Source of the DNA: Escherichia coli
GTDB taxonomy: Bacteria; Pseudomonadota; Gammaproteobacteria; Enterobacterales; Enterobacteriaceae
DNA: 64,000 nucleotides
Reading direction: 5' to 3' (one strand)
Assembly (NCBI RefSeq): GCF_030384885.1
Contig: NZ_CP128613.1
Shown here: positions 1-61,281 of the stretch, one piece after another
Layout: each line of letters opens with the position of its first letter
Position numbering within the stretch: position 1 is the first letter of the stretch
The notes under the pieces: generated by a model
Seen by the model: the letters and a program-made list of their open reading frames with translations, nothing else
The model's database searches: none
Told to the model about the DNA's origin: nothing
Made by a program: the position numbers and the translations under genes

Positions 1-111
1 CACTTCAAAGTAGCGAAAATAGTTACCGTGCCAGGCCACGCCCATCATATCGACGTCGTGAAATGGAATGATCAGCTCGACTTCAGCGGTAAATCGGGGA
101 TCGTTAAGCAC
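1..111 (-). CDS. hotdog-fold acyl-CoA/acyl-ACP thioesterase, N-terminal fragment (gene runs off window start)
   Basis: Reverse complement of 1-111 reads VLNDPRFTAEVELIIPFHDVDMMGVAWHGNYFRYFEV from a GTG at 109-111, immediately after the stop of the upstream gene; the ...HDVD..GVAWHGNYF pattern is typical of 4HBT/YbgC-type thioesterases. Start codon uncertain. Confidence 0.5.
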   Translation of the reverse strand, partial: MLNDPRFTAEVELIIPFHDVDMMGVAWHGNYFRYFEV

Positions 112-114
112 CCT

Positions 115-1791
115 TTACTCCTTGTCCTGGACTTCCGGCAGTTGCCAGAAATCGAAAAAATTAAACCAGTCGAGGGGCGACTGGAGCGCGTGATGTTCCA
201 GACGCGCGGCGTAATGATCGATAGCGTTTTGCAGCGCCTGCTGGCGTTCGCCACGCGGCAACAGCAGCGGGTCGGCAAAGGTTTCGCAGTGAATATGCAG
301 CTTGCCGTGCTGGCGCAGGGCGAAAATCAGATTCACCGGGCAGCGCAAAATAGAGGCGAGAATAAACGGCCCCTGTGGGAAGGGCGCAGGCTGGCCCATA
401 AACGGACTCCAGCAGACGCGCCAGTCGCCGCCGCGTTGCGGGTTGATGGCGATGCGGTCAGCAACAATCGCCACCCATTCGCCGTTATCCAGCTTCTCTT
501 TTAGCAGGATGGCGGTGTCCGGGCCGATATCCGTCACCGGGAGCAGGTTGATGCCTGCCTGCGGGGCCATCTCCTGCATTATCTGTTTAAAACGTTGGGC
601 GTTTTCGCTAAACACCAGCGCGTTAATGGTTTTGTAGCCCTGAATTTTTGCCAGCGCCCGGCACACTTCCACATCGCCAAGATGCGAGGCCAGCAGCAAT
701 TTGCCGCGCGGATCGCTGACGTTAAGTGCCGCTTCTGCGCCTGGTGCAAACAGCACATCACGCCCGAGTTGCAGCTCGCCGCGCCAACTGGCGATTTTGT
801 CGAGCATGGCGTTGCCGAAACGTAGAAAGTGCTGATAGCTGTTGAGTTTTGCTGCCTGTGGTTGATGCTGGCGCACACGGGCGAGCCAGTCTTGCGACGC
901 TTTGCGCGCCCGGCTGGCGGTGAGCCAGTAGACGCCCACCACCGGGTAAAGCAGCGCGGTAAACGCCGTTCTTCCCAGCAGGCGCCAGACCAGCAGCATC
1001 AGGCGCATTCCCCATAATCCTTTCACTTCGCTCTGCCGCGCCCAGTGGCTGGAAGAGTGGCGCATCAGCAGCGAAGGAATACGCGGCAACATGCCGAAAA
1101 ACAGGCGCGTGTGCATGAGCGAGATGCGGACGTTATCTTTCAGGGCATCAAAGTGCGAAAGCCCGTCCAGCGGATAGGTGACGCGAGTCGGCACGAAATA
1201 GCTGGTGTTTCCCTGCCAGTAGAGGCGCACCATCACTTCGGTGTCGAAATCCATCCGCTTGCCGATGGTGGCGTGTTTTGCCAGTTGCAGCGTTGGCGCA
1301 ACCGGATAAACGCGAAAGCCGCACATGCTGTCTTTCAGTTGCAGGGAGAGCGTTTCGATCCACACCCAGACGTGGGTGACCCAGCGCCCGTACAGCCGTG
1401 AGCGGGGGATGGAGTCATCGTAAATTGGCTGGCCGGAGATCAGTGCCGCAGGGTGTTGTTCAGCGAGTGCCAGCAGTTTGGGGATATCTTCAATCGCGTG
1501 CTGACCGTCGGCATCCACCTGTACCGCATGGCTGAACCCCGCGTCTGCCGCTGCCTGTAAGCCGCGCATTACCGCCGCGCCTTTGCCTGCGTTTTCTGCC
1601 AGGCGAATTAATGTCACGCCAGGCTGTTCGGCAACCAGATTATCCAGTTGCTGTTGCGTGGCGGCATCGCTGCCGTCATCCACCACAATACAGGGCAGAT
1701 TAAATGGCTTAAGACGCGCCAGCACGCCCGGCATCATTGCGCCGTGGTTGTAGCAGGGGATCAACACGCAGGGAGAAAAGTTTACCGACAT
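115..1791 (-). CDS. bifunctional family-2 glycosyltransferase / LpxL-like lipid acyltransferase (ApeJ-like)
   Basis: 558-aa ORF; N-terminus has GT-A signatures (LIPCYNH, VVDDGSDA, VDADGQH); C-terminal half resembles lauroyl/myristoyl (HtrB/LpxL-family) acyltransferases. Family assignment by pattern recognition, not search. Confidence 0.8.
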   Translation of the reverse strand: MSVNFSPCVLIPCYNHGAMMPGVLARLKPFNLPCIVVDDGSDAATQQQLDNLVAEQPGVTLIRLAENAGKGAAVMRGLQAAADAGFSHAVQVDADGQHAIEDIPKLLALAEQHPAALISGQPIYDDSIPRSRLYGRWVTHVWVWIETLSLQLKDSMCGFRVYPVAPTLQLAKHATIGKRMDFDTEVMVRLYWQGNTSYFVPTRVTYPLDGLSHFDALKDNVRISLMHTRLFFGMLPRIPSLLMRHSSSHWARQSEVKGLWGMRLMLLVWRLLGRTAFTALLYPVVGVYWLTASRARKASQDWLARVRQHQPQAAKLNSYQHFLRFGNAMLDKIASWRGELQLGRDVLFAPGAEAALNVSDPRGKLLLASHLGDVEVCRALAKIQGYKTINALVFSENAQRFKQIMQEMAPQAGINLLPVTDIGPDTAILLKEKLDNGEWVAIVADRIAINPQRGGDWRVCWSPFMGQPAPFPQGPFILASILRCPVNLIFALRQHGKLHIHCETFADPLLLPRGERQQALQNAIDHYAARLEHHALQSPLDWFNFFDFWQLPEVQDKE

Positions 1792-2135
1792 AGGCGGATC
1801 TTCCCGCTACTGGCGGTGTGGCGGGCGTCACCGTCGTGACGCTGATAACTAAAGCTCAGAATCTGGCGTTCTTCCTGCCAGCTAAGCGTGAGTGTGACGC
1901 GGTTATCCGGCAGCAATGGAGCCTGGAATTTGATGTTCTGAATGGAGTGAAAACGCCAACCGGGCGCGAGCAGGGCAAGCGCGTAACTCATCGCCCAGTC
2001 GATTTGTGCCACGCCGGGGAGTAATGGTTGTACGGCAAAATGACCGCGAAACCAGAACAGATCTGCCCTGAGATGCAAAACAATCTCAAGGTGATTCACT
2101 TGTGCCTGATGGCGCTCGATTTCATGGGGCTTCAT
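1782..2135 (-). CDS. FabA/FabZ-like hotdog 3-hydroxyacyl-ACP dehydratase
   Basis: Motif FRGHFAVQPLLPGVAQIDWAMS resembles the FabZ motif F.GHFP..P.MPGV; start placed at the ATG (2133-2135) preceded by AGGAG rather than the track's upstream ATG at 2165; overlaps the upstream gene's stop by 14 nt. Confidence 0.75.
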   Translation of the reverse strand: MKPHEIERHQAQVNHLEIVLHLRADLFWFRGHFAVQPLLPGVAQIDWAMSYALALLAPGWRFHSIQNIKFQAPLLPDNRVTLTLSWQEERQILSFSYQRHDGDARHTASSGKIRLCR

Positions 2136-3483
2136 GAAATAACTCCTGTAATTGCGCATAGACACGCTTGTTCATACTGTTTACTGGCATTTCATCAATA
2201 ACGCGCCAGTAACGCGGAATAGCAACTGGCTCCAGCGTCGGGCGCAGTAATCGCCGCCAGGCCATTTCCTGGCTGTGCCCGCCGCCGTTTTGCCATTGCA
2301 GGCGAGCTTCGTCATCCAGCACCAGCAAAACGCCAATACTCTGACGCCCGCCGCGCGTAACGGGAACTGCCGCCGCCTCGTGAATACCGTCCAGCGCCAG
2401 CAGACGTTGTTCTACTTCCTGGAGTGAAATGCGTTTTTCTTCAATCTTAACGATGCGTCCGCGACGCCCCATCAGATGGAACTGGCCGTCTTCGCTAAAC
2501 TGCAAGATATCGTCGAGTAACAGGCCGCTATCTTCCTCCATCAGAGGTGAAAAGAGACGAAAGGCATCATCTTCGGCCTGGAACTGCATACCTGGAAAGG
2601 GCCGCCAGCGGCGTTGCTCTTGTTCGCGGTAACGCCAGGCGATGACGCCGGTTTCCGTGCTGCCGTAGATTTCATCAGGCCAGACGCGCAGCCAGCTCGC
2701 GGTGTGTTGTACGTCCTGCCACGGTAGTTCACCGCCAGCGGACAGAAGCACCTGAACGGGGGGCGGGGATAGCTGAGCATCCAGACGCTTCAAAAATGCC
2801 GGGCTGCTGATGAAGATATAGCGATGCTGATGACTCAACGCGGCAAACTGTTCGACATACCAGAGCATGGCGGCATGGAGCGGTAATCCCAGCGCCATGG
2901 GCAGGAAAACGCGAAAAGTCAGGCCGTACAAATGCTGCGGCAATACGGAACCGATGACACGACATCCGGCAAGACGTGCGCCTAATCGTTCAGCCAGCAG
3001 TTCTGCTTCACGGTCCAACAAACGAACAGGTTTAATCACCCGCTTCGGCTGCCCTGTGGAACCAGAGGTAAACAGCTCGATATAAGCGTCTGGCGCTATA
3101 GCGGCAAAGGTGAATGATTGTGTCGCGACTTGTGGGGAGCTTGCTACCAACTGCAATGAACCTTGGCAGTTAAGTTCGCTGTCGCTAAGCACACCATCGA
3201 ACAGTTCACGTTGCTCGTTAAGCTGGATGACGCGGTTATGCCCCGGAAGCACCGGTGTTTTTCCGGCGTGTAGCGTGGCGAGCAGGGCAACGATAAACAG
3301 ATAGCAGTCCTCAAAGCACAGCGCCCAGCGTTCACCTGGTTGTTGCTGTAAACGGCAGATAAGTTGCGAGACATCGTGACGCAAATCGCCCAGCGTCCAG
3401 GTGCTTTCGTCCAGCCACGCAATGGGCGTGTCATCAGAGCGTGGCGCAGTCAGCCAGCGTGCAAGCGGTAAGGTCTGCTTCAT
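2122..3483 (-). CDS. AMP-dependent synthetase/ligase (acyl-ACP/acyl-CoA synthetase-like)
   Basis: TSGSTGQPK AMP-binding motif; start placed at the ATG that overlaps the upstream TGA as ATGA (3480-3483); the track ORF extends to 3522. Confidence 0.8.
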   Translation of the reverse strand: MKQTLPLARWLTAPRSDDTPIAWLDESTWTLGDLRHDVSQLICRLQQQPGERWALCFEDCYLFIVALLATLHAGKTPVLPGHNRVIQLNEQRELFDGVLSDSELNCQGSLQLVASSPQVATQSFTFAAIAPDAYIELFTSGSTGQPKRVIKPVRLLDREAELLAERLGARLAGCRVIGSVLPQHLYGLTFRVFLPMALGLPLHAAMLWYVEQFAALSHQHRYIFISSPAFLKRLDAQLSPPPVQVLLSAGGELPWQDVQHTASWLRVWPDEIYGSTETGVIAWRYREQEQRRWRPFPGMQFQAEDDAFRLFSPLMEEDSGLLLDDILQFSEDGQFHLMGRRGRIVKIEEKRISLQEVEQRLLALDGIHEAAAVPVTRGGRQSIGVLLVLDDEARLQWQNGGGHSQEMAWRRLLRPTLEPVAIPRYWRVIDEMPVNSMNKRVYAQLQELFHEAP

Positions 3484-4061
3484 GAGCGATCTCTTTTCAT
3501 CACCTGACGGCGCACCAGCCATTCACCAGCCATTAACGTCCCCATCAACAAATAAGCAATCATGCCGTTCCAGGCAGTCCATAACGACATATCGCCATGC
3601 AGCGCGGTAAAGAGGGCAATTCCGCCGTTGATGATGAAAAAGCCGCACCAGATTTGCGTGACGTGGCGGGTATAGCGCACGCCCTTTTCCGGGAGGTCTG
3701 GCTCCTGCAAACGCGCCAGCCGCTCAACAATTGGCATTGCCGACCACAGCGAACCGCCAAAAACCGCCAGCATTACCGCGTTAACCACTACCGGGTAAAA
3801 CAGCAGTAGCTGGTGCGTTTTCAACAGAAAGCTGGCAACACACAAGGCGATACCCACAACAGCGACGATTTGTGTGACGGCTTGTAGCGGCCCGGCCTGG
3901 CAACGAGTCTGGCGCAGGCGCAATAAAAGCAGCAGCGCCATCAGCGGCAACAGCCAGTGCAGGCCGTTATGTGCCAAACCAAGCCAAATCACAAACGGCC
4001 AGGCGAGCAGCAATAATCCAGTCAGCAGTTTAATAATCGGTAGCGAGCGAATGCCCGACAT
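3480..4061 (-). CDS. integral membrane protein of the lipid-biosynthesis cluster
   Basis: 193-aa ORF, several hydrophobic segments, co-directional and translationally coupled within the cluster. Confidence 0.7.
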   Translation of the reverse strand: MSGIRSLPIIKLLTGLLLLAWPFVIWLGLAHNGLHWLLPLMALLLLLRLRQTRCQAGPLQAVTQIVAVVGIALCVASFLLKTHQLLLFYPVVVNAVMLAVFGGSLWSAMPIVERLARLQEPDLPEKGVRYTRHVTQIWCGFFIINGGIALFTALHGDMSLWTAWNGMIAYLLMGTLMAGEWLVRRQVMKRDRS

Positions 4062-4065
4062 CAGA

Positions 4066-4317
4066 TCAGGCTTCTTGTAGCAGGCGTTCTACGGCCTCTA
4101 CGACATCCCGGACTGTACGCACTGCTTTAAACTCTTCCGGCTTGATTTTCTTACCGGTTTTCTTTTGCAGATGCACAATCATGTCAACGGCGTCGATGCT
4201 GTCCAGTTCCAGATCTTCGTACAGGCGCGCTTCAGGTTTGATGTCCTGCGGTTCGATTTCAAACAGCTTAACCAGCAGAGCTGAGACTTCCTGATAGACG
4301 GTTTGTTGTTCTGTCAT
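4066..4317 (-). CDS. acyl carrier protein
   Basis: 83 aa, acidic, LDSIDAVDMI phosphopantetheine-attachment motif. Confidence 0.85.
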   Translation of the reverse strand: MTEQQTVYQEVSALLVKLFEIEPQDIKPEARLYEDLELDSIDAVDMIVHLQKKTGKKIKPEEFKAVRTVRDVVEAVERLLQEA

Positions 4318-4328
4318 GATGGCTTTCC

Positions 4329-4586
4329 TCAGGCACGTTGTGCAGCAATAAAAGAGGCCAGAGTGGCGACAGAGAAAAAGTGCTGACGCATCTCTTCACT
4401 TTCCGCAGAAAGTACAACGCCATATTCATTTTTCACTGCCAGCCCCAGTTCCAGGGCATCGATAGAGTCCAGCCCTAAACCGTCGCCAAACAGTGGCGCG
4501 TCGGTATCGATATCATCAGGAGCCAACTCGTCCAGATTGAGGGTGCTGATGATGAGATTTTTAATTTCCAGATAAAGCGCTTGCAT
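4329..4586 (-). CDS. acyl carrier protein
   Basis: 85 aa, GLDSIDALELG phosphopantetheine-attachment motif; 5' end overlaps the upstream acyltransferase gene, so the exact start is uncertain. Confidence 0.8.
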   Translation of the reverse strand: MQALYLEIKNLIISTLNLDELAPDDIDTDAPLFGDGLGLDSIDALELGLAVKNEYGVVLSAESEEMRQHFFSVATLASFIAAQRA

Positions 4587-5382
4587 TATTTATTCCTGAG
4601 AGAGGTAAACAACCTTGTTGTAATTGAAGCAAAAGATGCCGGTTTAACTGCCTTGCTGCTAGCGCCGGTTCTTGTGAAGTTGCATCGTAAAATTTATTGA
4701 TTTCTACCCGCCCACGGACTTCAACCGTAAAAAGTGGCCTGGCAGGTGGAACGTCATACCATTTACTTTGTTTATCCAGCAGATGCTCGCTACAGCCGAT
4801 CGTCACGATGCGTAAATCGCTGGCGCAGCGCACGGCAATATTCGCCGCACCGCGCTGTAACGTCATTTTTTCACCAGGCTTCGTCCGCGTGCCTTCGGGG
4901 AAAATCAAGATAGTGTCGCCCTGTGCCAGTCGCTGTTGGCAACGGGGTAAGAGAGTTTCAGCTTCGCTGTTGATTAAATAATCTGCCGCCCGCACGACGC
5001 CGCCAAGAAAAGGATTTTTTAACAGCGCGCTTTTTACCAGGCAGTCAGTTTCTGGCATGACTGATGCCAGTAGTACGTAATCGATAAGCGTGGGATGATT
5101 AGCTACGACGAGGCAACCGCGTTCCTGACGTAAAATTTCAGCCCCATCAATACGATAATCCAGCACGCCAAGCCCTTTTGCGACTGTTAAAAACAGACGA
5201 AAACTGGCGGCAATGCTGCGACGCGCCAAACGACGGCGGCGGGAAGTGTTCCACACCAAAACTAACAGTACGTTAAACCACACCACAGAGAGTAGTAGTC
5301 CGCCGAGGCCAAACAGGGCAAAACACAACCCGGTCATAACCAGTCGCCATGTCCATTCCAGGCGTGACATCAGCTTACTCAT
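4561..5382 (-). CDS. PlsC-family (lysophospholipid/1-acylglycerol-3-phosphate-like) acyltransferase
   Basis: 273 aa; N-terminal transmembrane segment, NH-x4-D motif (ANHPTLID) and FPEGTRT motif. Confidence 0.8.
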   Translation of the reverse strand: MSKLMSRLEWTWRLVMTGLCFALFGLGGLLLSVVWFNVLLVLVWNTSRRRRLARRSIAASFRLFLTVAKGLGVLDYRIDGAEILRQERGCLVVANHPTLIDYVLLASVMPETDCLVKSALLKNPFLGGVVRAADYLINSEAETLLPRCQQRLAQGDTILIFPEGTRTKPGEKMTLQRGAANIAVRCASDLRIVTIGCSEHLLDKQSKWYDVPPARPLFTVEVRGRVEINKFYDATSQEPALAARQLNRHLLLQLQQGCLPLSGINNASALSGN

Positions 5383-6125
5383 CTACGGCTCCAGCGCCAC
5401 TGTACGCGCTCACCAGGAAGTGAAAAAGCATCTGAATTTTGTAAATAGTGCTGTAAAAACAACATGCTTTGCGGCAGTGTTGTTTCATTGCCCGCAATGG
5501 CTGGCTGTGTTTCACATTGCCACTCATCGCCAGCTTCAATCACCAGCGCAACAGCATATGGCCAGGTCGGCATTTCTGCTGGGAGCTGCGGATGATAGAA
5601 CTCAGGTAGAAAGCCATCAAAATCGACCATCAACACACGCTGGTATCCCGCTTGTAGCAGGCTAAGCACTTCACTCAAACCTTGCTGGAAAGTGTCGCGA
5701 CCAGCCGAAAGCGATGACGAAACGATCGGCTGTTTGGCCGCAATGGTCAGGTTACCCACGGAAGAGTTGTGTACTGAAAGTGCAAAGTCGGTGGGGGAAA
5801 GCGCCTGTTCAGTTGCCAGTGCATGAACAATGCGGTAATTGCGCTCCAGTTCGCCATGACGACTGGTATACAAAACGGCGTCTGGCTGATGGCGGCGTAG
5901 CATTGCCAGGCCGCATTCAACAGCCAGTTTGCTGCCTGAACTGAGGCGGCGGGCGGTCATCATTGGCAGTTCACTTAATTTTGCCAACGGCGCGGCAGGG
6001 TCAATCGCCCACGGCTGGCGCGACCATGCTTGCCATTGCTGCGCTTCGCTAAGTCCAGGCGCCAGTGCCTGCCAGTCGGTAATATTTAATGTAAATTTCA
6101 TCAACGCGCGCCCGCGGTAAACCAA
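5379..6125 (-). CDS. hypothetical protein, possibly beta-ketoacyl-synthase N-terminal-like domain (chain-length-factor-like)
   Basis: 248-aa ORF with ATGA overlap to the downstream acyltransferase; function inferred only from position in the cluster and vague resemblance; needs an HMM search. Confidence 0.6.
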   Translation of the reverse strand: MVYRGRALMKFTLNITDWQALAPGLSEAQQWQAWSRQPWAIDPAAPLAKLSELPMMTARRLSSGSKLAVECGLAMLRRHQPDAVLYTSRHGELERNYRIVHALATEQALSPTDFALSVHNSSVGNLTIAAKQPIVSSSLSAGRDTFQQGLSEVLSLLQAGYQRVLMVDFDGFLPEFYHPQLPAEMPTWPYAVALVIEAGDEWQCETQPAIAGNETTLPQSMLFLQHYLQNSDAFSLPGERVQWRWSRR

Positions 6126-6141
6126 AATTATTAAGTGACGA

Positions 6142-7209
6142 TTATTTCTTTTGGCATATCAAAAGAGTATGCCCAACGCCTAAATTATCGTGGCGCTCTG
6201 CTACCTGAAATCCTGCTTTATTCAGATAGTCGTAAAATTTCTCTGCACTATAGAAACGGCTGTTACCGTTTGCCATGCAGGTGAAATAAAGTGAGGACGC
6301 GTTCAGGCTAAATGATGCTGCTTCAAACCGCTGCGCATCCCAGAACAACTCCATGATGCAAACTTTTGCGCCAGGCTTCATTACGCTGGCGATTTTGCTG
6401 AGTATGCTAATTATTTGTTCGGGTGAAAAACAGTCTAAAAATTGGCTCATCCACCAGATATCAGCCTCGCCCGGTAATGGGGCATCGCTTAGCATATCCA
6501 CCGCATGGAAATCTATGCGATCAGAAAAACCTGCATTCGCGATATTTTCTTTCGCTAGTACGATTTGTTGTGGCAGATCTAATAACGTCACGGCGATGTT
6601 TTCATTGTATTTGCAGCAACGCAAAGCCCACTTACCCGTATTGCCGCCTACATCGTACAATGTTGTGGGGTTGTTGGCGAATACATAAGGCAGTGCGGCG
6701 TTAAATGCGCCATCTGAATAGTAATGATCAAACGCAAACCAGCTTTCACGAGCGGCATCTGGTAATTGTGAAAGTGCGGGATATATCGTCGACCAGTCGC
6801 CAAATACTTTTAACCCGGACGGTTTTCCTTCATTGAGTGAATCGGCGAGGAAGAAGAGCCCCTGATAGCAGACATCCTGGGTGAAATCCATATTCACGCG
6901 AGTCATAGTGTCATGCAGGAGGTAATGACCGATTTTCGCCAGGTAATACATTCCCTCTTTACAGGTAATAATTCGCCCGCTTAAGCCCATATCTAACAGA
7001 ACGCTGGCCGCATATTCGTTGATATGGCTATGTTCGGTGATATCAGCCAGCGTTGCGCCATGTTTGCCTTGCCGATCCAGATATGAAAGTACACCCGCAT
7101 TACGTAGGCAGAGAGCTGTTTGAAAAAGCATGGGGGCAAAGGCAATGCGTTGAGCTTCGGTAATCGCATCCAGTGCGCTAAGAGAATCCTGTTCGTACAT
7201 GTTGGGCAC
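6142..7209 (-). CDS. class I SAM-dependent O-methyltransferase
   Basis: 355 aa; VGGNTGKWA glycine-rich SAM-binding motif followed by LLDLP...DM..D, typical of O-methyltransferase family 2. Confidence 0.85.
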   Translation of the reverse strand: MPNMYEQDSLSALDAITEAQRIAFAPMLFQTALCLRNAGVLSYLDRQGKHGATLADITEHSHINEYAASVLLDMGLSGRIITCKEGMYYLAKIGHYLLHDTMTRVNMDFTQDVCYQGLFFLADSLNEGKPSGLKVFGDWSTIYPALSQLPDAARESWFAFDHYYSDGAFNAALPYVFANNPTTLYDVGGNTGKWALRCCKYNENIAVTLLDLPQQIVLAKENIANAGFSDRIDFHAVDMLSDAPLPGEADIWWMSQFLDCFSPEQIISILSKIASVMKPGAKVCIMELFWDAQRFEAASFSLNASSLYFTCMANGNSRFYSAEKFYDYLNKAGFQVAERHDNLGVGHTLLICQKK

Positions 7210-7268
7210 AACCTGTTAAGAGGGAATTAAATTATTATCGGACCGAAGCGGCCCGACTTTAGGGGAAA

Positions 7269-7658
7269 TTACAAATCTGCGCCAGCCGACAAATTCAGTT
7301 GAATATCTTTGTCGAGATTGCGGACCCAGCGATTATAGTTTTTATGAATTTGTCCGCCTGATGCTTGCAGGTTCTGACTATTTTCATAATTGATATCGTA
7401 GCTGGATGCCGTGTAGTTAATGCGAATTTCGGCTGAATGATCGCGTGACTGTTGACGTGCTTTAATTACGCCTTGTCCGGCTTCGGACATAATCCATTTG
7501 CGTTCAACGCCAGCTTTCAGAATCGCTTTTTTCACTTGTTCCGGGGTATGACCAGCGCTGACGGTTGAGTGAACCTGATCAATTGGCGCAGTACGCGCGC
7601 AACCCGCTAAAGCACCCACAACAGCAATAGCCGCAAACCATTTCATGTAATGTCTCAT
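7269..7658 (-). CDS. small lipoprotein, first gene of the cluster in this window
   Basis: 129 aa; signal peptide with lipobox LAGC (MKWFAAIAVVGALAGC); exact start (7658 vs 7646) uncertain. Confidence 0.65.
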   Translation of the reverse strand: MRHYMKWFAAIAVVGALAGCARTAPIDQVHSTVSAGHTPEQVKKAILKAGVERKWIMSEAGQGVIKARQQSRDHSAEIRINYTASSYDINYENSQNLQASGGQIHKNYNRWVRNLDKDIQLNLSAGADL

Positions 7659-12414: not shown

Positions 12415-12723
12415 ATGGATTATTTAATTCCAGTTTGTCTGGTATTGCTGGGATTGCTCGCGATCTTCACCCCCAATTGGCTGATCCCTGTTTTTATCGT
12501 CGTGGGGGGATGGCTGGGGGTACTTGCCTGGGGTTGGCTCTGGCTAATGATTTTTTTACCTTTACTTAACGGTGTCGGGCTTGCTTATGCCCTGTGGTTG
12601 ATGTTCAAAAGGCCATCCATAGCATCCCGCCTGGTTGCTGCATGCTGTGTTATCTCCGTCATTCTGATGTTAGCGCTTTATTATGCTTTCCTGACTATGC
12701 CGCCGTTCCCGCCTCAGCACTAA
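12415..12723 (+). CDS. hypothetical small hydrophobic protein (unverified ORF)
   Basis: 102-aa ORF directly after the BIME; Trp/Leu-rich with 2-3 predicted transmembrane segments (GGWLGVLAWGWLWLMIFLPLL); weak Shine-Dalgarno; could be a chance ORF. Confidence 0.3.
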   Translation: MDYLIPVCLVLLGLLAIFTPNWLIPVFIVVGGWLGVLAWGWLWLMIFLPLLNGVGLAYALWLMFKRPSIASRLVAACCVISVILMLALYYAFLTMPPFPPQH

Positions 12724-28858: not shown

Positions 28859-29605
28859 ATGCATTATGCCGTTGTCGTCATGCTTGAACTGCTTTGCTGT
28901 ATTCACGCTTACCGTACTGGACAAGAGCGGTATTGGATTTTTATCATCTTCTGTTTTCCGGTGATTGGCTGCGTGGCGTATTTTGTCATGGTGATGCTGC
29001 CAGAAACGGGCGCTGACCGTCACGGGCGTACCTTTCTGATGCGCCTGCAGGACAAAATCAATCCGGAACGTCACCTGCGCAAATTAACCGAAGAGCTGGC
29101 GATTGCCGAGACCAATCAAAACCACTATCAACTTGCCAACGAGCTGGCGCGTCTGGAGCGTTACCACGAAGCCGTTCCCCATTATCAGCAGGCGTTAAGC
29201 GGGATATTCGTCCATGAAGCGGCAATGATGCTAAGCCTGGCGCAGGCGCAGTTTGCCATTCAGGAGTTCGCCGCCTGTCAGCAGACGCTGGAAGATGTGA
29301 TGCGTTATAACCCCGATTTTCAGTCGGCAGACGGACACTTGTTATTCGCCAGAACCTTAGCCGCCCAGGAGAAATACGCTGACGCGGAAAGCGAGTTTGA
29401 AGTATTGATTTCTTATTACCCCGGCCCGCAGGCACGTATTTTCTATGCGGAAATGCTGGCGAAAATGAGTCGACTACGTGAAGCCAACGAGCAATATGTT
29501 GCTGTGGTTGATACGGCTAAACGCTCAAGACCACATTATAGAAAACACCACCGGGAATGGATTAAGACCGCCAATGACCGGCTGAAGCAGAGTATTGTTC
29601 GATAA
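28859..29605 (+). CDS. hypothetical membrane-anchored protein: PLDc_N-like two-helix N-terminus plus helical (TPR-like) soluble domain
   Basis: 248-aa ORF with E. coli-like codon usage; N-terminus YWIFIIFCFPVIGCVAYFVMVML resembles the cardiolipin-synthase N-terminal (PLDc_N) motif W..II...P..G...Y; followed by its own hairpin terminator; weak Shine-Dalgarno. Confidence 0.6.
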   Translation: MHYAVVVMLELLCCIHAYRTGQERYWIFIIFCFPVIGCVAYFVMVMLPETGADRHGRTFLMRLQDKINPERHLRKLTEELAIAETNQNHYQLANELARLERYHEAVPHYQQALSGIFVHEAAMMLSLAQAQFAIQEFAACQQTLEDVMRYNPDFQSADGHLLFARTLAAQEKYADAESEFEVLISYYPGPQARIFYAEMLAKMSRLREANEQYVAVVDTAKRSRPHYRKHHREWIKTANDRLKQSIVR

Positions 29606-52548: not shown

Positions 52549-55014
<2,466 letters not shown>

Positions 55015-55030
55015 GTTCACTATAAAATAG

Positions 55031-55060
55031 AACGGGGCCAAATCGGTCCCGTTTTTTTTC
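55031..55060 (+). terminator. rho-independent terminator after glgP
   Basis: Hairpin aacggggccaaatcggtcccgtt followed by tttttttc. Confidence 0.8.
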
Positions 55061-55131
55061 GCCTTTATTTCGGAGAAGTGTCCAGAGGGGCAAGGGGATT
55101 CGGGGGAGTATAATTTCGCCATTCAGAAAGA

Positions 55132-56649
55132 ATGGAAAGAATAATGCAAAACAGAAAATGGATTTTGACCTCGCTGATAATGACTTTTTTCGGCATCCCC
55201 ATACTGGCGCAATTTTTGGCAGCGGTTATTGCCATGCTGGGGGCCGGGCTTGCCGCTATTCTTGAGGCTTGCAATTTACTCTTTACGCCAACAATTTATC
55301 TTCTACTCAACGTCTTTATGCTGACGCTGGGGGCGATAATCCTATTTTTCTCTGGTCGCGTGTGGGCCGGTGATAGCGCACCAGAAAACAGAGAAATAGC
55401 CGTCTGGCGGCAATGCTTTTTTCTTTTACCTGCACTGTTAACTCTGGTTGGCTGGATAATCACGCTACATCTGGCAGATTATCAATTTCGCCAAATGGGA
55501 GCAGGTTGGTTGGCAGAGCTTATGCTCCCCTGGCTGGGAGTTTTGTTAGTCTCATTAGTCGGAGGTGAGTTCTGGTGGATAGTCATTATACCCGTTGGTG
55601 CGCATATTAGTTTTTCGCTGGGGTATGGCTGGCCGACCAGATATCCTTTAACCGGCACGTACGGGTTACGTTGCCGTAATTCCCTCCTGTTTATCCTTCT
55701 CATGCTTGGTTTTATCGCTGGTTATCAGGCTTATTTATATAAACAGATTAATCCCGGCGTCGGTGTGCGTGAAAATATTGATACCTGGGCCTGGCGACCC
55801 GATAAACTCAATAATCAACTGACGCCACTGCGTGGTAAACCGCAAATTCAGTTTACACAAAACTGGCCGCGACTCGATGGTGCTACGGCGGCGTACCCAA
55901 TTTATGCTTCTGCCTTTTATGCGTTGAGCGTTATACCGGAAGATTTCCACACATGGGAATATCTGGAGAACTCTCGTACCCCCGATGCATATAACAGGAT
56001 TGTTAAAGGTGATGCCGATATTATTTTTGTGGCGCAACCTTCCGGTGGGCAGAAAAAACGTGCAGAGGAATCGGGCGTCACTTTGAACTACACTCCTTTC
56101 GCCCGTGAAGCATTCGTTTTCATCGTCAATGCGGATAACCCGGTTAATTCCCTGACTGACCAACAGGTGCGTGACATCTTCAGTGGCGCAATTACCAACT
56201 GGCGTACTGTTGGCGGTAACGATCAGGAGATCCAGACCTGGCAACGCCCGGAAGACTCTGGCAGCCAGACAGTGATGCAATCGCAGGTCATGAAAAATGT
56301 CCGCATGATCTCGCCGCAGGAAACCGAAGTGGCAAGCATGATGGAGGGAATGATTAAAGTTGTTGCCGAATACCGTAATACAAACAACTCAATAGGCTAC
56401 ACCTTCCGCTATTACGCAACACAAATGAATGCCGATAAAAATATAAAACTGCTAGCTATTAACGGTATTGCACCGACTGCGGAAAATATTCGTAACGGCA
56501 AATATCCATATATCGTCGATGCCTTTATGGTAACGCGGGAAAATACTACGTCAGAAACACAAAAACTGGTCGAATGGTTTTTAACGCCGCAGGGGCAGAG
56601 TCTGGTGGAAGATGTGGGTTATGTACCGTTGCATACAACAATGAAATAA
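55132..56649 (+). CDS. hypothetical fusion protein: N-terminal multi-pass membrane domain + C-terminal PstS-like (PBP-like) periplasmic binding domain
   Basis: 505-aa ORF; the first ~230 aa are hydrophobic helices; the C-terminal domain carries PstS-family-like segments (NSLTDQQVRDIFSGAITNWRTVGG, WQRPEDSGSQTVM); start may instead be the ATG at 55144. Confidence 0.8.
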   Translation: MERIMQNRKWILTSLIMTFFGIPILAQFLAAVIAMLGAGLAAILEACNLLFTPTIYLLLNVFMLTLGAIILFFSGRVWAGDSAPENREIAVWRQCFFLLPALLTLVGWIITLHLADYQFRQMGAGWLAELMLPWLGVLLVSLVGGEFWWIVIIPVGAHISFSLGYGWPTRYPLTGTYGLRCRNSLLFILLMLGFIAGYQAYLYKQINPGVGVRENIDTWAWRPDKLNNQLTPLRGKPQIQFTQNWPRLDGATAAYPIYASAFYALSVIPEDFHTWEYLENSRTPDAYNRIVKGDADIIFVAQPSGGQKKRAEESGVTLNYTPFAREAFVFIVNADNPVNSLTDQQVRDIFSGAITNWRTVGGNDQEIQTWQRPEDSGSQTVMQSQVMKNVRMISPQETEVASMMEGMIKVVAEYRNTNNSIGYTFRYYATQMNADKNIKLLAINGIAPTAENIRNGKYPYIVDAFMVTRENTTSETQKLVEWFLTPQGQSLVEDVGYVPLHTTMK

Positions 56650-56674
56650 CTTTTGAGAGAACGGAATCAGCGCG

Positions 56675-57667
56675 ATGAATAAATTCATAGGCGTTTTACT
56701 GCTAGGTGCGGTTTTACTGGCGGGATGTGTCGACCGGGAAGGCTACTATAACAGCGTCAGGGAAGAAGACAGCCATGGACTGACGACTCTGCGGGGGCAA
56801 CCTGAATTACGTTACAACGATGATTGGTCAAGATGGCCGAGAGTATACGGCGCTACAGCCTTATACCCGCTGTATGCCTCCGCGTATTATGAATTAGTAC
56901 CCGAGCCAAAAGATAAGGATCGAACCTCGCTGGCCTGGCAGGCGTATGGTTTGCAACAAACCCGAACAGCTGAAGCCTACGATAGTCTGATCAAGGGTAC
57001 CGCGACGGTTATTTTTGTTGCACAACCGTCGGAAGGACAGAAAAAACGTGCAGAAGAAGCAGGCGTTAAACTGAAATATACCGCGTTTGCCCGCGAAGCC
57101 TTTGTCTTTATCGTTGATATCAAAAACCCGGTTAATTCACTTAGCGAACAGCAGGTCAAAGACATTTTTAGCGGTAAAGTGAGTCGCTGGAATAAAGTGG
57201 GCGGCGGTGACGAAAGTATAAAAGTCTGGCAGCGGCCAGAAGATTCTGGAAGCCAAACGGTTATGAAGGGACTGGTTATGCAAGATACTCCAATGCTGCC
57301 AGCCAAAAAATCCACTGTTATCGATCTTATGGGCGGTTTAATTACCGAAGTCGCCGACTACCAAAACACAACATCTTCCATTGGATACACCTTCCACTAT
57401 TACGTCACACGTATGAATGACAATATGCTCAAAATGCGCAAACAGATCAAACTGCTAGCTATAACTGGCATTGCGCCTACAGAGGAAAATATCCGTAACG
57501 GCACTTATCCGTACATAATTGATGCTTATATGGTGACGCACGAAACCCCTGCGCTGGAAACGCAGAAATTCGTCGACTGGTTTTTAAGCCCGCAGGGACA
57601 GCAATTGGTAGAGGATGTGGGGTATGTGCCGATTCATGACGCATCATACGAATCATCAGTGCAATAA
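56675..57667 (+). CDS. hypothetical PstS-like (PBP-like) lipoprotein, paralogue of the C-terminal domain of the upstream gene
   Basis: 330 aa; lipobox LLAGC; long identical/near-identical stretches with the preceding protein (FVAQPS.GQKKRAEE.GV, NPVNSL..QQV.DIFSG, WQRPEDSGSQTVM, IGYTF.YY.T.MN). Confidence 0.85.
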   Translation: MNKFIGVLLLGAVLLAGCVDREGYYNSVREEDSHGLTTLRGQPELRYNDDWSRWPRVYGATALYPLYASAYYELVPEPKDKDRTSLAWQAYGLQQTRTAEAYDSLIKGTATVIFVAQPSEGQKKRAEEAGVKLKYTAFAREAFVFIVDIKNPVNSLSEQQVKDIFSGKVSRWNKVGGGDESIKVWQRPEDSGSQTVMKGLVMQDTPMLPAKKSTVIDLMGGLITEVADYQNTTSSIGYTFHYYVTRMNDNMLKMRKQIKLLAITGIAPTEENIRNGTYPYIIDAYMVTHETPALETQKFVDWFLSPQGQQLVEDVGYVPIHDASYESSVQ

Positions 57668-58269
57668 TGATGAATAAAATCAGACTTTATATTCCTCCGT
57701 TAATTCTTGGTTTTGTTATTGTGCCGTTGTTGGTGTGGCCGACGGTGGTTGCGCTGGCTGCTTCTGTTATCACGCTGAGTTTTCTGGGAGAGATACTGTT
57801 CTCTATCCCGCTCATGATCAGGCGTATTTCACTTCTGCAATTACAACTATGGTTATCGGCTGAATATGCGCTTTTCTTCTGTGCAATGGTGGGCGTTGGT
57901 TGGCAATTTGCGCGCAGAACGCCACCTGAATTGAAAAGCAGACTGCATTGTTGGCTGGTATTTGCACCAGTTTATTTCTGGTTGCTCCTGTGGAATATCA
58001 TTTTCTATGTCGCGCCAGCGAATATTGCGTTGCTGGAGAATATGCGCAGTTTCTTTCTGACAGTTGTCTGGCTCCCACTGAATTTTTCGCCATTTTGGTC
58101 TCAACCGTGGATTGACTTTGTCGGTCCAATAAGCGCACAGCTTGGTTTTGCGTTGGGATATTATTGCCAGTGGCGTAGCAAAAATAGAAGCCAGATACGG
58201 AAGTGGAGTGAGTGGGGAACGTGCCTGAGTTTTGTTACGTTGGGTATGATGGCGTGGGCTTTGCGGTAA
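57667..58269 (+). CDS. hypothetical membrane protein, paralogue of the N-terminal membrane domain of the 505-aa protein
   Basis: 200 aa, multi-pass; TAATG overlap with the upstream lipoprotein gene; segment GPISAQLGFALGYYCQW matches PVGAHISFSLGYGWPTR of the fusion protein. Confidence 0.75.
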   Translation: MMNKIRLYIPPLILGFVIVPLLVWPTVVALAASVITLSFLGEILFSIPLMIRRISLLQLQLWLSAEYALFFCAMVGVGWQFARRTPPELKSRLHCWLVFAPVYFWLLLWNIIFYVAPANIALLENMRSFFLTVVWLPLNFSPFWSQPWIDFVGPISAQLGFALGYYCQWRSKNRSQIRKWSEWGTCLSFVTLGMMAWALR

Positions 58270-58376
58270 TTCCCTGACTCAAAAAGTAGGTCAGATTGTT
58301 GACAAAGTGCGCTTTGTTCATGCCGGATGCGACATGAACGTCTTATTGGCCTACAAGACCATGCAAATTGTAGTGG

Positions 58377-59626
<1,250 letters not shown>

Positions 59627-59742: not shown

Positions 59743-61248
59743 TTACGACGCCAGCGACAACCTCTGCTGCGTATATTCCCCTAGCCACTGACTCACACGG
59801 GATTGTTGCTGCGCATTCAGCCACATGCCTTGTTTTGTGCGACGCCACAGGGCATCGTCGGCGCGGCGGACCCATTCGTGGTCGACCAGATATTTCAGCT
59901 CTGCTTCGTAAAACTCATGCCCGAAATCCTCCCCAAGATCGCTTACCGCCCCCGCATTGCCGAGCAGCAGCTCGCTATTGCTGCCGTAAGTGCGCGCGTA
60001 GTGACGTGCCAGCGATTCAGTCAGGAACGGGTAACGGCGGCGCAGGCGGGCGGCGTAATCGTCGCGGTCGCCTTCAATGGCTCCGCCCGGCAGCACGCTC
60101 TCTTTCGTCCACGCTGGGCCAATGCCCTGATAATATGGCGTCAGTTTTTCCAGCGCGTGTTCCGCCAGTTTGCGGTAGGTGGTCAGCTTACCGCCGAATA
60201 CCGATAACAGCGGAGCTTTGCCGTTTTCATCATGGATATCAAGGGTGTAATCACGGGTAATGGCCTGCGGCGAATCAGATTCATCATCACACAGTGGACG
60301 CACGCCGGAGTAGGTCCAGACGATATCATCCCGGCTTAGCGGCTTTTTAAAGTGCGCGTTATACACTTTCAGCAGGTAATTGATTTCACTCTCTTCAATC
60401 TTCACCGCTTTCGGATCGCCTTTATACTCCACATCGGTGGTGCCGATAATGGAAAACTCGTCCATCCACGGGATCACGAAGACAATACGTTTATCTTCGT
60501 TTTGCAGAATGTAGGCTTGCTTCTGGGTATGCACACGCGGCACGACAATATGGCTGCCTTTGATCAGGCGAATGCCATAAGGTGAGGGTAGATGCATACC
60601 GTCGTCGAAGAACTGCTTCACCCACGGGCCGGTGGCGTTCACGAGGCCGCGCGCTTGCCAGCTATATTTTTTGCCGGTATCGATATCTTCCGCTTCCACA
60701 ATCCACAGGCCGTTTTCGCGGCGAGCAGAAGTGGCACGAGTACGGGTAAGCACTTCACCGCCTTTACGCACCACCATCTGGGCGTTGGCGAGTACCAGAC
60801 GGGCGTCGTCTACCCAACAGTCGGAATATTCGAATCCGCGCTTAATTTCCGGTTTTAACACTGAATTTGCGCCAAAACGCAAACCGGTTGATCCCGGCAG
60901 GCTGGTGCGTTTACCCAGATGATCGTACATAAACAGACCAATACGGATCATCCACGCCGGACGCAGATGCGGGCGATGCGGCAGGCGAAAACGCATCGGG
61001 AAAGCGATATGGGGAGCCATTTTCAGCAACACTTCACGTTCAGCCAGCGCCTCGCTGACCAGGCGGAATTCATAGTGCTCAAGGTAGCGCAGGCCACCAT
61101 GAATGAGTTTTGAACTGGCGGAAGAGGTCGCACAAGCGAGATCCTGCGCCTCCAGCATCAGCACGGATAAACCGCGTCCAGCGGCGTCTGCCGCGATACC
61201 AGCACCATTGATGCCGCCACCTATCACAATCAGATCTTTGGTTTCCAT
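59743..61248 (-). CDS. glpD: aerobic glycerol-3-phosphate dehydrogenase GlpD
   Basis: Recognised from METKDLIVIGGGINGAGIAADAAGRG (501 aa, FAD-binding GxGxxG). Confidence 0.97.
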   Translation of the reverse strand: METKDLIVIGGGINGAGIAADAAGRGLSVLMLEAQDLACATSSASSKLIHGGLRYLEHYEFRLVSEALAEREVLLKMAPHIAFPMRFRLPHRPHLRPAWMIRIGLFMYDHLGKRTSLPGSTGLRFGANSVLKPEIKRGFEYSDCWVDDARLVLANAQMVVRKGGEVLTRTRATSARRENGLWIVEAEDIDTGKKYSWQARGLVNATGPWVKQFFDDGMHLPSPYGIRLIKGSHIVVPRVHTQKQAYILQNEDKRIVFVIPWMDEFSIIGTTDVEYKGDPKAVKIEESEINYLLKVYNAHFKKPLSRDDIVWTYSGVRPLCDDESDSPQAITRDYTLDIHDENGKAPLLSVFGGKLTTYRKLAEHALEKLTPYYQGIGPAWTKESVLPGGAIEGDRDDYAARLRRRYPFLTESLARHYARTYGSNSELLLGNAGAVSDLGEDFGHEFYEAELKYLVDHEWVRRADDALWRRTKQGMWLNAQQQSRVSQWLGEYTQQRLSLAS

Positions 61249-61281
61249 GCTGCCCTCATTCACTTTCGTTAAAGCTCATAA

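Follow-up and report, generated by a model that had tools for sequence, protein, structure and literature searches.

We analyzed a 64,000-nucleotide stretch of Escherichia coli DNA (contig NZ_CP128613.1 of RefSeq assembly GCF_030384885.1), hereafter referred to as the window, focusing on three genes that lie on the same strand between glgP and glpD. The window matches the chromosome of E. coli 2013C-4282 (NZ_CP027579.1) at 100%. Gene 1 encodes an N-terminal membrane domain fused to a C-terminal PstS-like binding domain. Genes 2 and 3 encode paralogs of the same two domains as separate polypeptides and in the reversed order. An initial annotation, made from the sequence alone, had described all three genes under positions 56675-58269; this span holds genes 2 and 3, and gene 1 is located just upstream, outside of it. 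Our analysis confirms the paralogy and indicates that genes 2 and 3 became neighbors through replacement of a gene cassette rather than through splitting of a fused gene. Both the homology and the replacement history are well supported, and we hold them with high confidence. The main features of the locus are as follows.

55132..56649, plus strand: gene 1, an open reading frame (ORF) of 505 amino acids (aa) from the first ATG, encoding the fused membrane and binding protein; the RefSeq model (WP_123058319.1) starts at 55141 and has 502 aa
55132..55761, plus strand: membrane module of gene 1, an un-annotated family
55819..56649, plus strand: PstS-like binding domain of gene 1
56675..57667, plus strand: gene 2, an ORF of 330 aa, the lipoprotein form of the binding domain
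57623..57667, plus strand: 3' tail of gene 2, which shares homology with the 3' end of an unrelated 255-aa gene; the right-hand replacement junction
57665..57669, plus strand: TAATG, the overlap of the gene 2 stop and gene 3 start, as read in the sequence
57667..58269, plus strand: gene 3, an ORF of 200 aa, the stand-alone six-helix membrane module
57670, plus strand: second ATG, an alternative start of gene 3
55365..58210: segment missing in K-12-type strains (from blastn, annotation and partial matches)

The two-domain architecture initially proposed for gene 1 agrees with the ORFs, Pfam and the AlphaFold helices. Residues 1 to ~210 constitute a six-helix membrane module (helices 2-46, 53-80, 84-114, 124-144, 149-169 and 177-206), residues ~210-229 a linker, and residues 230-505 the PstS-like domain, in which Pfam PF12849 (PBP_like_2) matches residues 250-485 (E = 1.4e-29). 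The membrane part has no match in Pfam. The AlphaFold model of the gene 3 product also consists of six helices, with a predicted local distance difference test score (pLDDT) of 74.5 and a predicted template modeling score (pTM) of 0.74. In RefSeq, genes 1 and 2 are both named 'PstS family phosphate ABC transporter substrate-binding protein' and gene 3 is a 'hypothetical protein'.

Genes 2 and 3 are true paralogs of the two gene 1 domains. For the binding domains this is evident from pairwise alignment, in which residues 230-501 of gene 1 and 36-321 of gene 2 share 59% identity over 286 aa (E = 4e-119). The motif strings that the initial annotation had quoted as common to the paralogs are all found in the sequences, and the TAATG overlap is present as described. 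The membrane domains of genes 1 and 3 are ~23% identical, and BLASTP alone does not relate them significantly (E = 0.06). Nevertheless, their homology is upheld by four other tests. First, the Smith-Waterman score of 66 was reached by 6 of 1000 shuffles (shuffle mean 40.6). Second, hhalign matched the two families with a probability of 90.8% (E = 1.5e-7) over 182 colinear columns; the score was 40.5, while column shuffles gave at most 21 and shuffles in 20-column blocks a mean of 16 (standard deviation 6.7, maximum 33.7). Third, an exhaustive profile search with the membrane module against 1.84 billion representative proteins returned only 73 matches, which include bridges between the families: the distant fused proteins P0171, P0197 and P0201 and the membrane-only proteins P0145 and P0169. 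With bridging sequences such as P0169, the two families can be aligned jointly, and G, P, L, W, W, F and G are invariant across this alignment. Fourth, Foldseek with the gene 3 model found as its best match the N-terminal membrane domain of a fused 'PstS family' protein of Salmonella salamae (TM-score 0.72, E = 4e-4), and the only other meaningful matches were membrane domains of fused proteins from Budvicia and Leminorella. Given the profile comparison, the bridging sequences and the fold match, the similarity is not just one of low complexity or hydrophobic bias.

The six-helix module is found only in Enterobacterales. Searches of PADLOC, PHROGs, NCBIfam, Pfam and PDB with gene 3, the membrane part of gene 1 and the 255-aa protein introduced below returned nothing, and the likeness of the module to solved folds is that of generic bundles, falling short of any known permease fold. 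Conserved residues in the membrane part of gene 1 are P23, G75, P100, L105, W134, F161, L163, G164 and R182. Within the helices, conservation is limited to Pro, Gly, Trp, Phe and Leu, the conserved Arg is located in loops, and no conserved acidic or His residue was found in the helices in the family alignments. We read the module as a putative anchor or docking piece rather than an enzyme or a channel. Binding domains fused to transporter membrane domains occur in OpuA and GlnPQ-type ATP-binding cassette (ABC) importers; in gene 1 the binding domain is likewise covalently held on a polytopic membrane domain, at its outer face.

The binding domains of genes 1 and 2 probably face the periplasm, because the loop ahead of the last helix of gene 1 contains three Arg residues and the gene 2 product is a lipoprotein. 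The signal peptide of the latter carries the lipobox LLAG-C18, with Val at +2 and Asp at +3. We also considered helix 6 of a fused ancestor as the source of the gene 2 signal sequence and dropped this idea: residues 1-34 align to another region without significance (166 of 2000 shuffles), and the hidden Markov model of the full-length fused protein aligns gene 2 only from residue 30.

To see how the genes are distributed, we used 5426 complete E. coli genomes, requiring that at least 80% of the query be covered. Gene 1 was found in 3347 genomes, gene 2 in 884 and a gene-3-like sequence in 3828. The full three-gene block with intact ORFs is present in 882 genomes, that is, in 882 of the 884 coding for gene 2. 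The allele of the window is rare, as at least 99% identity to it was observed in a single genome. In O157, the three genes are 90-96% identical in nucleotides to those of the window, and the locus corresponds to O-island 133 (OI-133), a variable island between glgP and glpD that is known and uncharacterized. Sequence type 131 (ST131)-type strains have a different arrangement, in which gene 1 is followed by an unrelated 255-aa protein and then, 2 bp downstream, by a gene-3-like gene. E. coli TA054 codes for three binding-domain genes in tandem. The K-12 gene yzgL corresponds to window positions 55000-55365 joined to 58210-58369 (blastn against L004). It occupies the same chromosomal site and is a deletion remnant, running from inside gene 1 to inside gene 3, and not a truncated stand-alone gene: only the 5' end of gene 1 and the 3' end of gene 3 are left of the locus that is intact in the window.

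Relatives in other bacteria were collected by scanning one genome per species with the binding-domain alignment. In Enterobacteriaceae, the subfamily is represented at 53-59% identity in Escherichia, Superficieibacter, Phytobacter, Klebsiella spallanzanii, Intestinirhabdus and Pseudocitrobacter, and 13 of the 15 species-representative enterobacterial loci are located between glgP and glpD. Planococcaceae and a few other Gram-positive bacteria have homologs of ~380 aa with 38-48% identity and three N-terminal helices. Elsewhere, the same binding-domain subfamily is anchored by a lipobox or a single helix.

A map of cassettes in 25 enterobacterial loci revealed that the usual first cassette at the glgP-glpD site is the fused gene. 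It may be followed by a second fused copy, as in Intestinirhabdus; in K. spallanzanii this copy is decaying. Alternatively, gene 2 and gene 3 follow (some E. coli, Escherichia sp. E1V33), or a 255-278-aa protein with a gene-3-like gene (ST131, E. whittamii, Superficieibacter, L015). The pair of 255-278-aa protein and membrane module is 49% identical between ST131 and L015. The 255-278-aa protein itself (L003 4736-5503; L015 121-957; L017 11074-11898; L025 7521-8330) looks cytoplasmic, has a Cys-rich N-terminal motif (CCEYC or YCAYC) and belongs to no known family; the 255-aa protein of ST131 has no signal peptide. In several genera it is conserved (47-66% identity) and tightly coupled upstream of gene-3-like proteins.

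The same site holds other genes of potential interest. Small secreted proteins of 120-148 aa with 'YRDxxGNxxGT'-type repeats and no family match recur at glgP-glpD in other Enterobacteriaceae (L010 9446-9868; L014 1736-2098 and 2290-2736; L015 1686-2114; L086 8231-8659; L090 3988-4413 and 9636-10064). In Superficieibacter, the hotspot (L017 6943-11117) includes a 935-aa helicase-like protein with a nuclease-like C-terminus between two paralogous ~250-aa proteins, which looks like a defense-type cassette. In the E. albertii type strain NBRC 107761, two ORFs stand in place of gene 1 and keep its original order, one of 218 aa for the membrane part (L018 5323-5979) and one of 285 aa for the binding part (5983-6840), representing either a natural fission or a pseudogene. 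In Pseudocitrobacter cyperus, a 351-aa gene (L086 7002-8057) overlaps the end of a gene-2-like lipoprotein gene and encodes the membrane module and the binding domain without the middle (profile positions 98-235). It illustrates a route by which decay could yield a stand-alone membrane gene.

Separate homologs of both parts of gene 1 thus exist next to it, as expected for a fusion/fission pair. However, the origin of genes 2 and 3 by the splitting of one fused gene is contradicted by their reversed order and by the replacement breakpoints. According to blastn, homology to the haplotypes with the 255-aa gene and the gene-3-like gene begins at 57636 (E. whittamii, 86%) or 57623 (ST131, 80%), still inside gene 2 and 30-45 bp ahead of its end; on the left, the edge of homology falls at the end of gene 1 (near 56639). 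The C-terminal tail of gene 2, HDASYESSVQ, resembles the tail of the 255-aa protein, YDASSESSGH, and differs from the usual ending of gene 2 relatives, ...GYVPLYKTL.... The breakpoints and the chimeric tail indicate that a binding cassette of ~1 kb replaced most of the 255-aa gene, leaving in place the final codons of that gene and the junction to gene 3. Gene 2 is an old lipoprotein-anchored paralog of the binding domain, which displaced the 255-aa partner in one Escherichia lineage, inheriting both its tail and its translational coupling. Gene 3, in turn, is an old stand-alone paralog of the membrane module, whose usual upstream partner is the unrelated 255-aa cytoplasmic protein. In neighbor-joining trees, the gene-2 clade branches outside all enterobacterial fused binding domains, and the gene-3 clade, including the copies paired with the 255-aa protein, branches outside all fused membrane domains. 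Moreover, gene-3 alleles do not group by partner: gene 3 of the window shares 89% identity with a copy located after a remnant of the 255-aa gene and 84% with a copy located after gene 2.

The initial annotation had taken the fused and split forms as strong evidence that the two domains interact physically. It might be argued on these grounds that genes 2 and 3 are a split gene-1-like protein, the products of which reassemble in the envelope as a two-domain machine with contact between domains. Both domains are indeed paralogs, both genes are under purifying selection (see below), and the complete block accompanies gene 2 in 882 of 884 genomes, with stop and start overlapping. In addition, since both genes represent deep sister lineages of the fused clade, there is room for a lost fused 'copy B'; tandem fused copies do exist, as does a lipoprotein copy followed by a fused copy whose binding domain is decaying. 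Yet the TAATG coupling cannot be taken as a sign of a co-evolved pair, because the junction, like the gene 2 tail, comes from the older 255-aa gene. One replacement event, passed on as a block, accounts for the co-occurrence equally well, and gene-3-like genes are present in many more genomes than gene 2 (3828). Most gene-3-type genes accompany the gene for the cytoplasmic 255-aa protein, and in Salmonella, E. albertii, L092 and L090 a gene-2-type protein is encoded in the absence of any gene-3-type gene. The unrelated anchors found elsewhere argue for membrane tethering rather than for a specific domain interface. Lacking Asp at +2, the gene 2 lipoprotein would be sorted by the E. coli rule to the outer membrane, away from a partner in the inner membrane. 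Finally, the AlphaFold model of full-length gene 1 (pLDDT 63, pTM 0.45; values under 50 in the linker and in part of the binding domain) is unusable for defining an interface. Because the junction is inherited, unrelated anchors are used elsewhere and gene 2 has a lipid anchor of its own, the Rosetta-stone inference is weak, and we regard a reassembled complex as decidedly unlikely.

As another possibility, the genes might be decaying, non-functional leftovers of a tandem array, adjacent only by accident of deletions. Decayed haplotypes are not hard to find (K-12 yzgL, the split gene 1 of E. albertii, the second copy of K. spallanzanii and the deleted copy of P. cyperus), and many database entries are truncated. 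However, 882 complete genomes have all three ORFs intact, and ratios of nonsynonymous to synonymous divergence (dN/dS) of 0.13-0.25 at dS of 0.13-0.9 show selection for the protein products, making this explanation highly improbable. Over all alleles compared, dN/dS is 0.08-0.3 for genes 1-3 at the same dS, while glgP and glpD have values of 0.003-0.05. The genes are therefore functional, although less constrained than housekeeping genes. The synonymous divergence of glgP and glpD between E. coli strains (0.11-0.26) seems high for core genes, judged without a genome-wide baseline, and suggests old haplotypes or recombination around the island.

The binding domains are related to PstS. The TIGR02136 model scores 118.8 bits for gene 1 and 115.8 bits for gene 2, about half of its cut-off (206.6), and the nearest PDB relatives of gene 2 are PstS proteins (best E = 1e-14). 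The phosphate-coordinating residues of PstS, which we take to be T10, S38, D56, R135, S139, G140 and T141, were located in the E. coli PstS sequence as checked against PDB 1IXH. In the hhalign alignment, R135/S139/G140/T141 correspond to the invariant R187/S191/G192/S193 and S38 to T98. D56 aligns with A116 and is not conserved; the T10 region is unaligned, and a GATA motif resembles GAGATF. By sequence, then, the proteins have in common with the PstS family (PF12849, TIGR02136, 1IXH) the type II periplasmic-binding fold, the Arg-x3-Ser-Gly-Ser/Thr anion loop, the N-terminal Gly-Ala-Thr motif and export to the periplasm. Unlike PstS, they are tethered to the membrane in all cases and never accompanied by pstCAB; besides having low model scores they lack Asp56, and their genes reside in a variable, dispensable island or in Rhs islands.

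These similarities might point to tethered receptors for phosphate, another oxyanion or a phospho-compound, serving a distant transporter (e.g. PstCAB) or a sensor (PhoR), with the membrane module as an anchor or docking piece. Such receptors would account for the PBP_like_2 and TIGR02136 similarity, for the nearest solved structures, for the aligned anion-loop residues and S38, and for the strong purifying selection on the binding domain, which retains 55-61% identity across genera. In enterohemorrhagic E. coli (EHEC), Pho signaling affects type III secretion. The sole phenotype described in the literature is a drop in type III secretion when OI-133 is deleted from EHEC (PMC3378721). On the other hand, the Asp that underlies the phosphate specificity of PstS is aligned with Ala, and no pstCAB or other transporter genes adjoin the binding-domain genes in the window, other E. 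coli, the 15 enterobacterial loci or the 46 Firmicutes loci; sensor genes were likewise never adjacent in the loci examined. By eye, no Pho-box-like sequence was seen upstream of gene 1, up to 55131. Furthermore, the locus is dispensable, being deleted in K-12, and receptor function does not explain why close relatives are found in Rhs islands. The binding domains are thus probably not transporter receptors, and we consider a tethered receptor of any of these kinds unlikely.

The Rhs context emerged from a word-index search with gene 2, which revealed a wider clade of 320-337-aa lipoproteins that are 57-83% identical to it. Members 62-65% identical to gene 2 directly follow Rhs C-terminal (CT) toxin modules. 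In E. albertii, VgrG is followed by PAAR-Rhs(CT-A), the binding protein and the next Rhs; CT-A, at L087 5486-5893, ends ~100 bp upstream of the binding protein. In Salmonella, the binding protein is found 54 bp after an orphan module, CT-B, at L088 5387-5944. A widespread Salmonella array (282 index blocks) contains intact binding copies both after a CT-A pseudogene (68% identical to CT-A, with one in-frame stop) and after CT-B remnants; it also holds further toxin and immunity-like cassettes, among them a fragment of Ntox34, a HEAT-repeat protein and an HExxH toxin accompanied by a lipoprotein. E. coli EC42405 has tssB, hcp, vgrG, Rhs, a 148-aa gene, the binding protein and Rhs in succession, and in Intestinirhabdus a TssM/VasX/PAAR cluster directly adjoins the two fused genes. 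Taken together, members of the gene-2 clade lie immediately downstream of a toxin in four loci and with two toxin families, while the window genes have no toxin nearby. Separately, in the Salmonella Rhs array (L084 4559-5436) a 135-aa protein with a HELTH (HExxH-type) motif is followed by a 154-aa lipoprotein, and these genes look like another toxin/immunity pair.

An intact gene that follows a toxin module and is retained as the toxin decays bears the signature of an immunity gene, and an exported, membrane-held protein suits a toxin acting in the periplasm. Tandem paralogs, presence/absence polymorphism and deep alleles also fit a conflict locus, and the helicase/nuclease-like cargo of the hotspot in Superficieibacter is in line with this. 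We therefore prefer to view genes 1-3 as a candidate orphan immunity array against periplasm-acting toxins, a tentative reading to which we give somewhat less than an even chance. The binding domains would act as protective proteins of the immunity type, retained on the periplasmic side at the membrane surface and neutralizing periplasm-acting toxins delivered on Rhs proteins by type VI secretion, either by binding the toxin or by covering its phosphate-bearing target. The latter would explain how one conserved protein can follow two unrelated toxin modules. The array at glgP-glpD would consist of orphan immunity genes kept without a toxin, and the membrane anchor, be it six helices, three helices or lipid, would be interchangeable. 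In its strongest form, the PstS fold would have been recruited against Rhs toxins, perhaps covering a lipid head group, the orphan array would decide survival in the gut, and the six-helix module would be a new anchor fold; this elaboration we regard as doubtful.

Compared with type VI immunity proteins and orphan Rhs arrays (Salmonella SPI-6 Rhs orphans; Tox-Act1/Imm-Act1, PMC12994826), gene 2 relatives occupy the same slot after the toxin and are likewise intact beside a toxin pseudogene, exported as lipoproteins and present as tandem polymorphic paralogs. They differ in being ~300 aa long and highly conserved and in showing no co-variation with the toxin family.

Several observations weigh against an immunity function. 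No toxin adjoins genes 1-3 in the window, and the 13 representative loci at glgP-glpD lack type VI genes. The binding proteins after CT-A and CT-B are 66-74% identical in all combinations and do not group by toxin, an unusual pattern for specific immunity. The upstream Rhs gene of EC42405 is already overlapped by a small gene that occupies the immunity position. The anion motif R-x3-S-G-S and the identity retained across genera suggest a conserved ligand, for which an immunity protein would have no need. The OI-133 effect on type III secretion does not point to immunity either. Planococcaceae homologs lack conserved neighbors (nothing consistent was found around the 46 Firmicutes homologs), although no search there was aimed at toxin genes. 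CT-A and CT-B match only the Rhs core in Pfam, NCBIfam and PDB and no known toxin family, and BLASTP detects no similarity between them. The impression of a His...Asn-Cys pattern, reminiscent of permuted NlpC/P60 toxins (PMC12994826), is an unconfirmed lead only. When JGI metagenomes were scanned with a degenerate pattern for CT-A, 0 matches were obtained. Proteins of this kind are not mentioned in a recent survey of the type VI effectors of Salmonella (PMC12994826), and in the literature searched we found no description of a PstS fold serving as an immunity protein.

Should the immunity reading be true, ~60% of E. coli genomes would carry an unrecognized protection factor against type VI Rhs toxins, now misannotated as a component of a phosphate transporter, and a binding fold of the transport type would have been reused for defense. 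O-island 133 and the K-12 pseudogene yzgL would also gain a testable role. Should it fail, what is left is an orphan family of membrane-tethered PstS-like paralogs of modest interest. Whatever the function, the breakpoints of fused and split genes located side by side should be analyzed before domain interaction is deduced from them, as the coupling here was inherited from an unrelated gene. OI-133 and yzgL were known before; what is new is the previously un-annotated six-helix module, the history of cassette replacement and the association of the lipoprotein clade with Rhs.

The order of genes in this part of the window is glgP, genes 1-3, an insertion sequence (IS) element of the IS3 family, glpD, glpE and glpG. 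G+C content is 47-49% over the locus and 51-53% in the adjoining windows. The flanking features are listed below.

52567-55014: glgP
55031..55060, plus strand: hairpin followed by a T-run after glgP, read from the sequence
58377-59590, minus strand: IS3-family element, two ORFs with a programmed frameshift
59743-61263: glpD

The hairpin is probably the glgP terminator, although a pattern scan of the locus did not list it. Because it likely ends the glgP transcript, gene 1 is probably transcribed from a promoter of its own. The IS3-family element is located ~100 bp past gene 3, and its site is empty in O157, ST131 and K-12. An Rfam scan of the locus gave a sole match above the gathering score, to isrC (145 bits, 59436-59558), which falls within this element. 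Farther away, positions 1-7650 of the window hold a portion of an aryl-polyene-type lipid biosynthesis cluster, with genes for an ApeI-family dehydratase, acyl carrier proteins, a chain-length factor and a glycosyltransferase. Two further genes annotated as 'hypothetical protein' are found amid well-known genes, at 12415-12723 (after tusA) and at 28859-29605 (between livF and ugpB).

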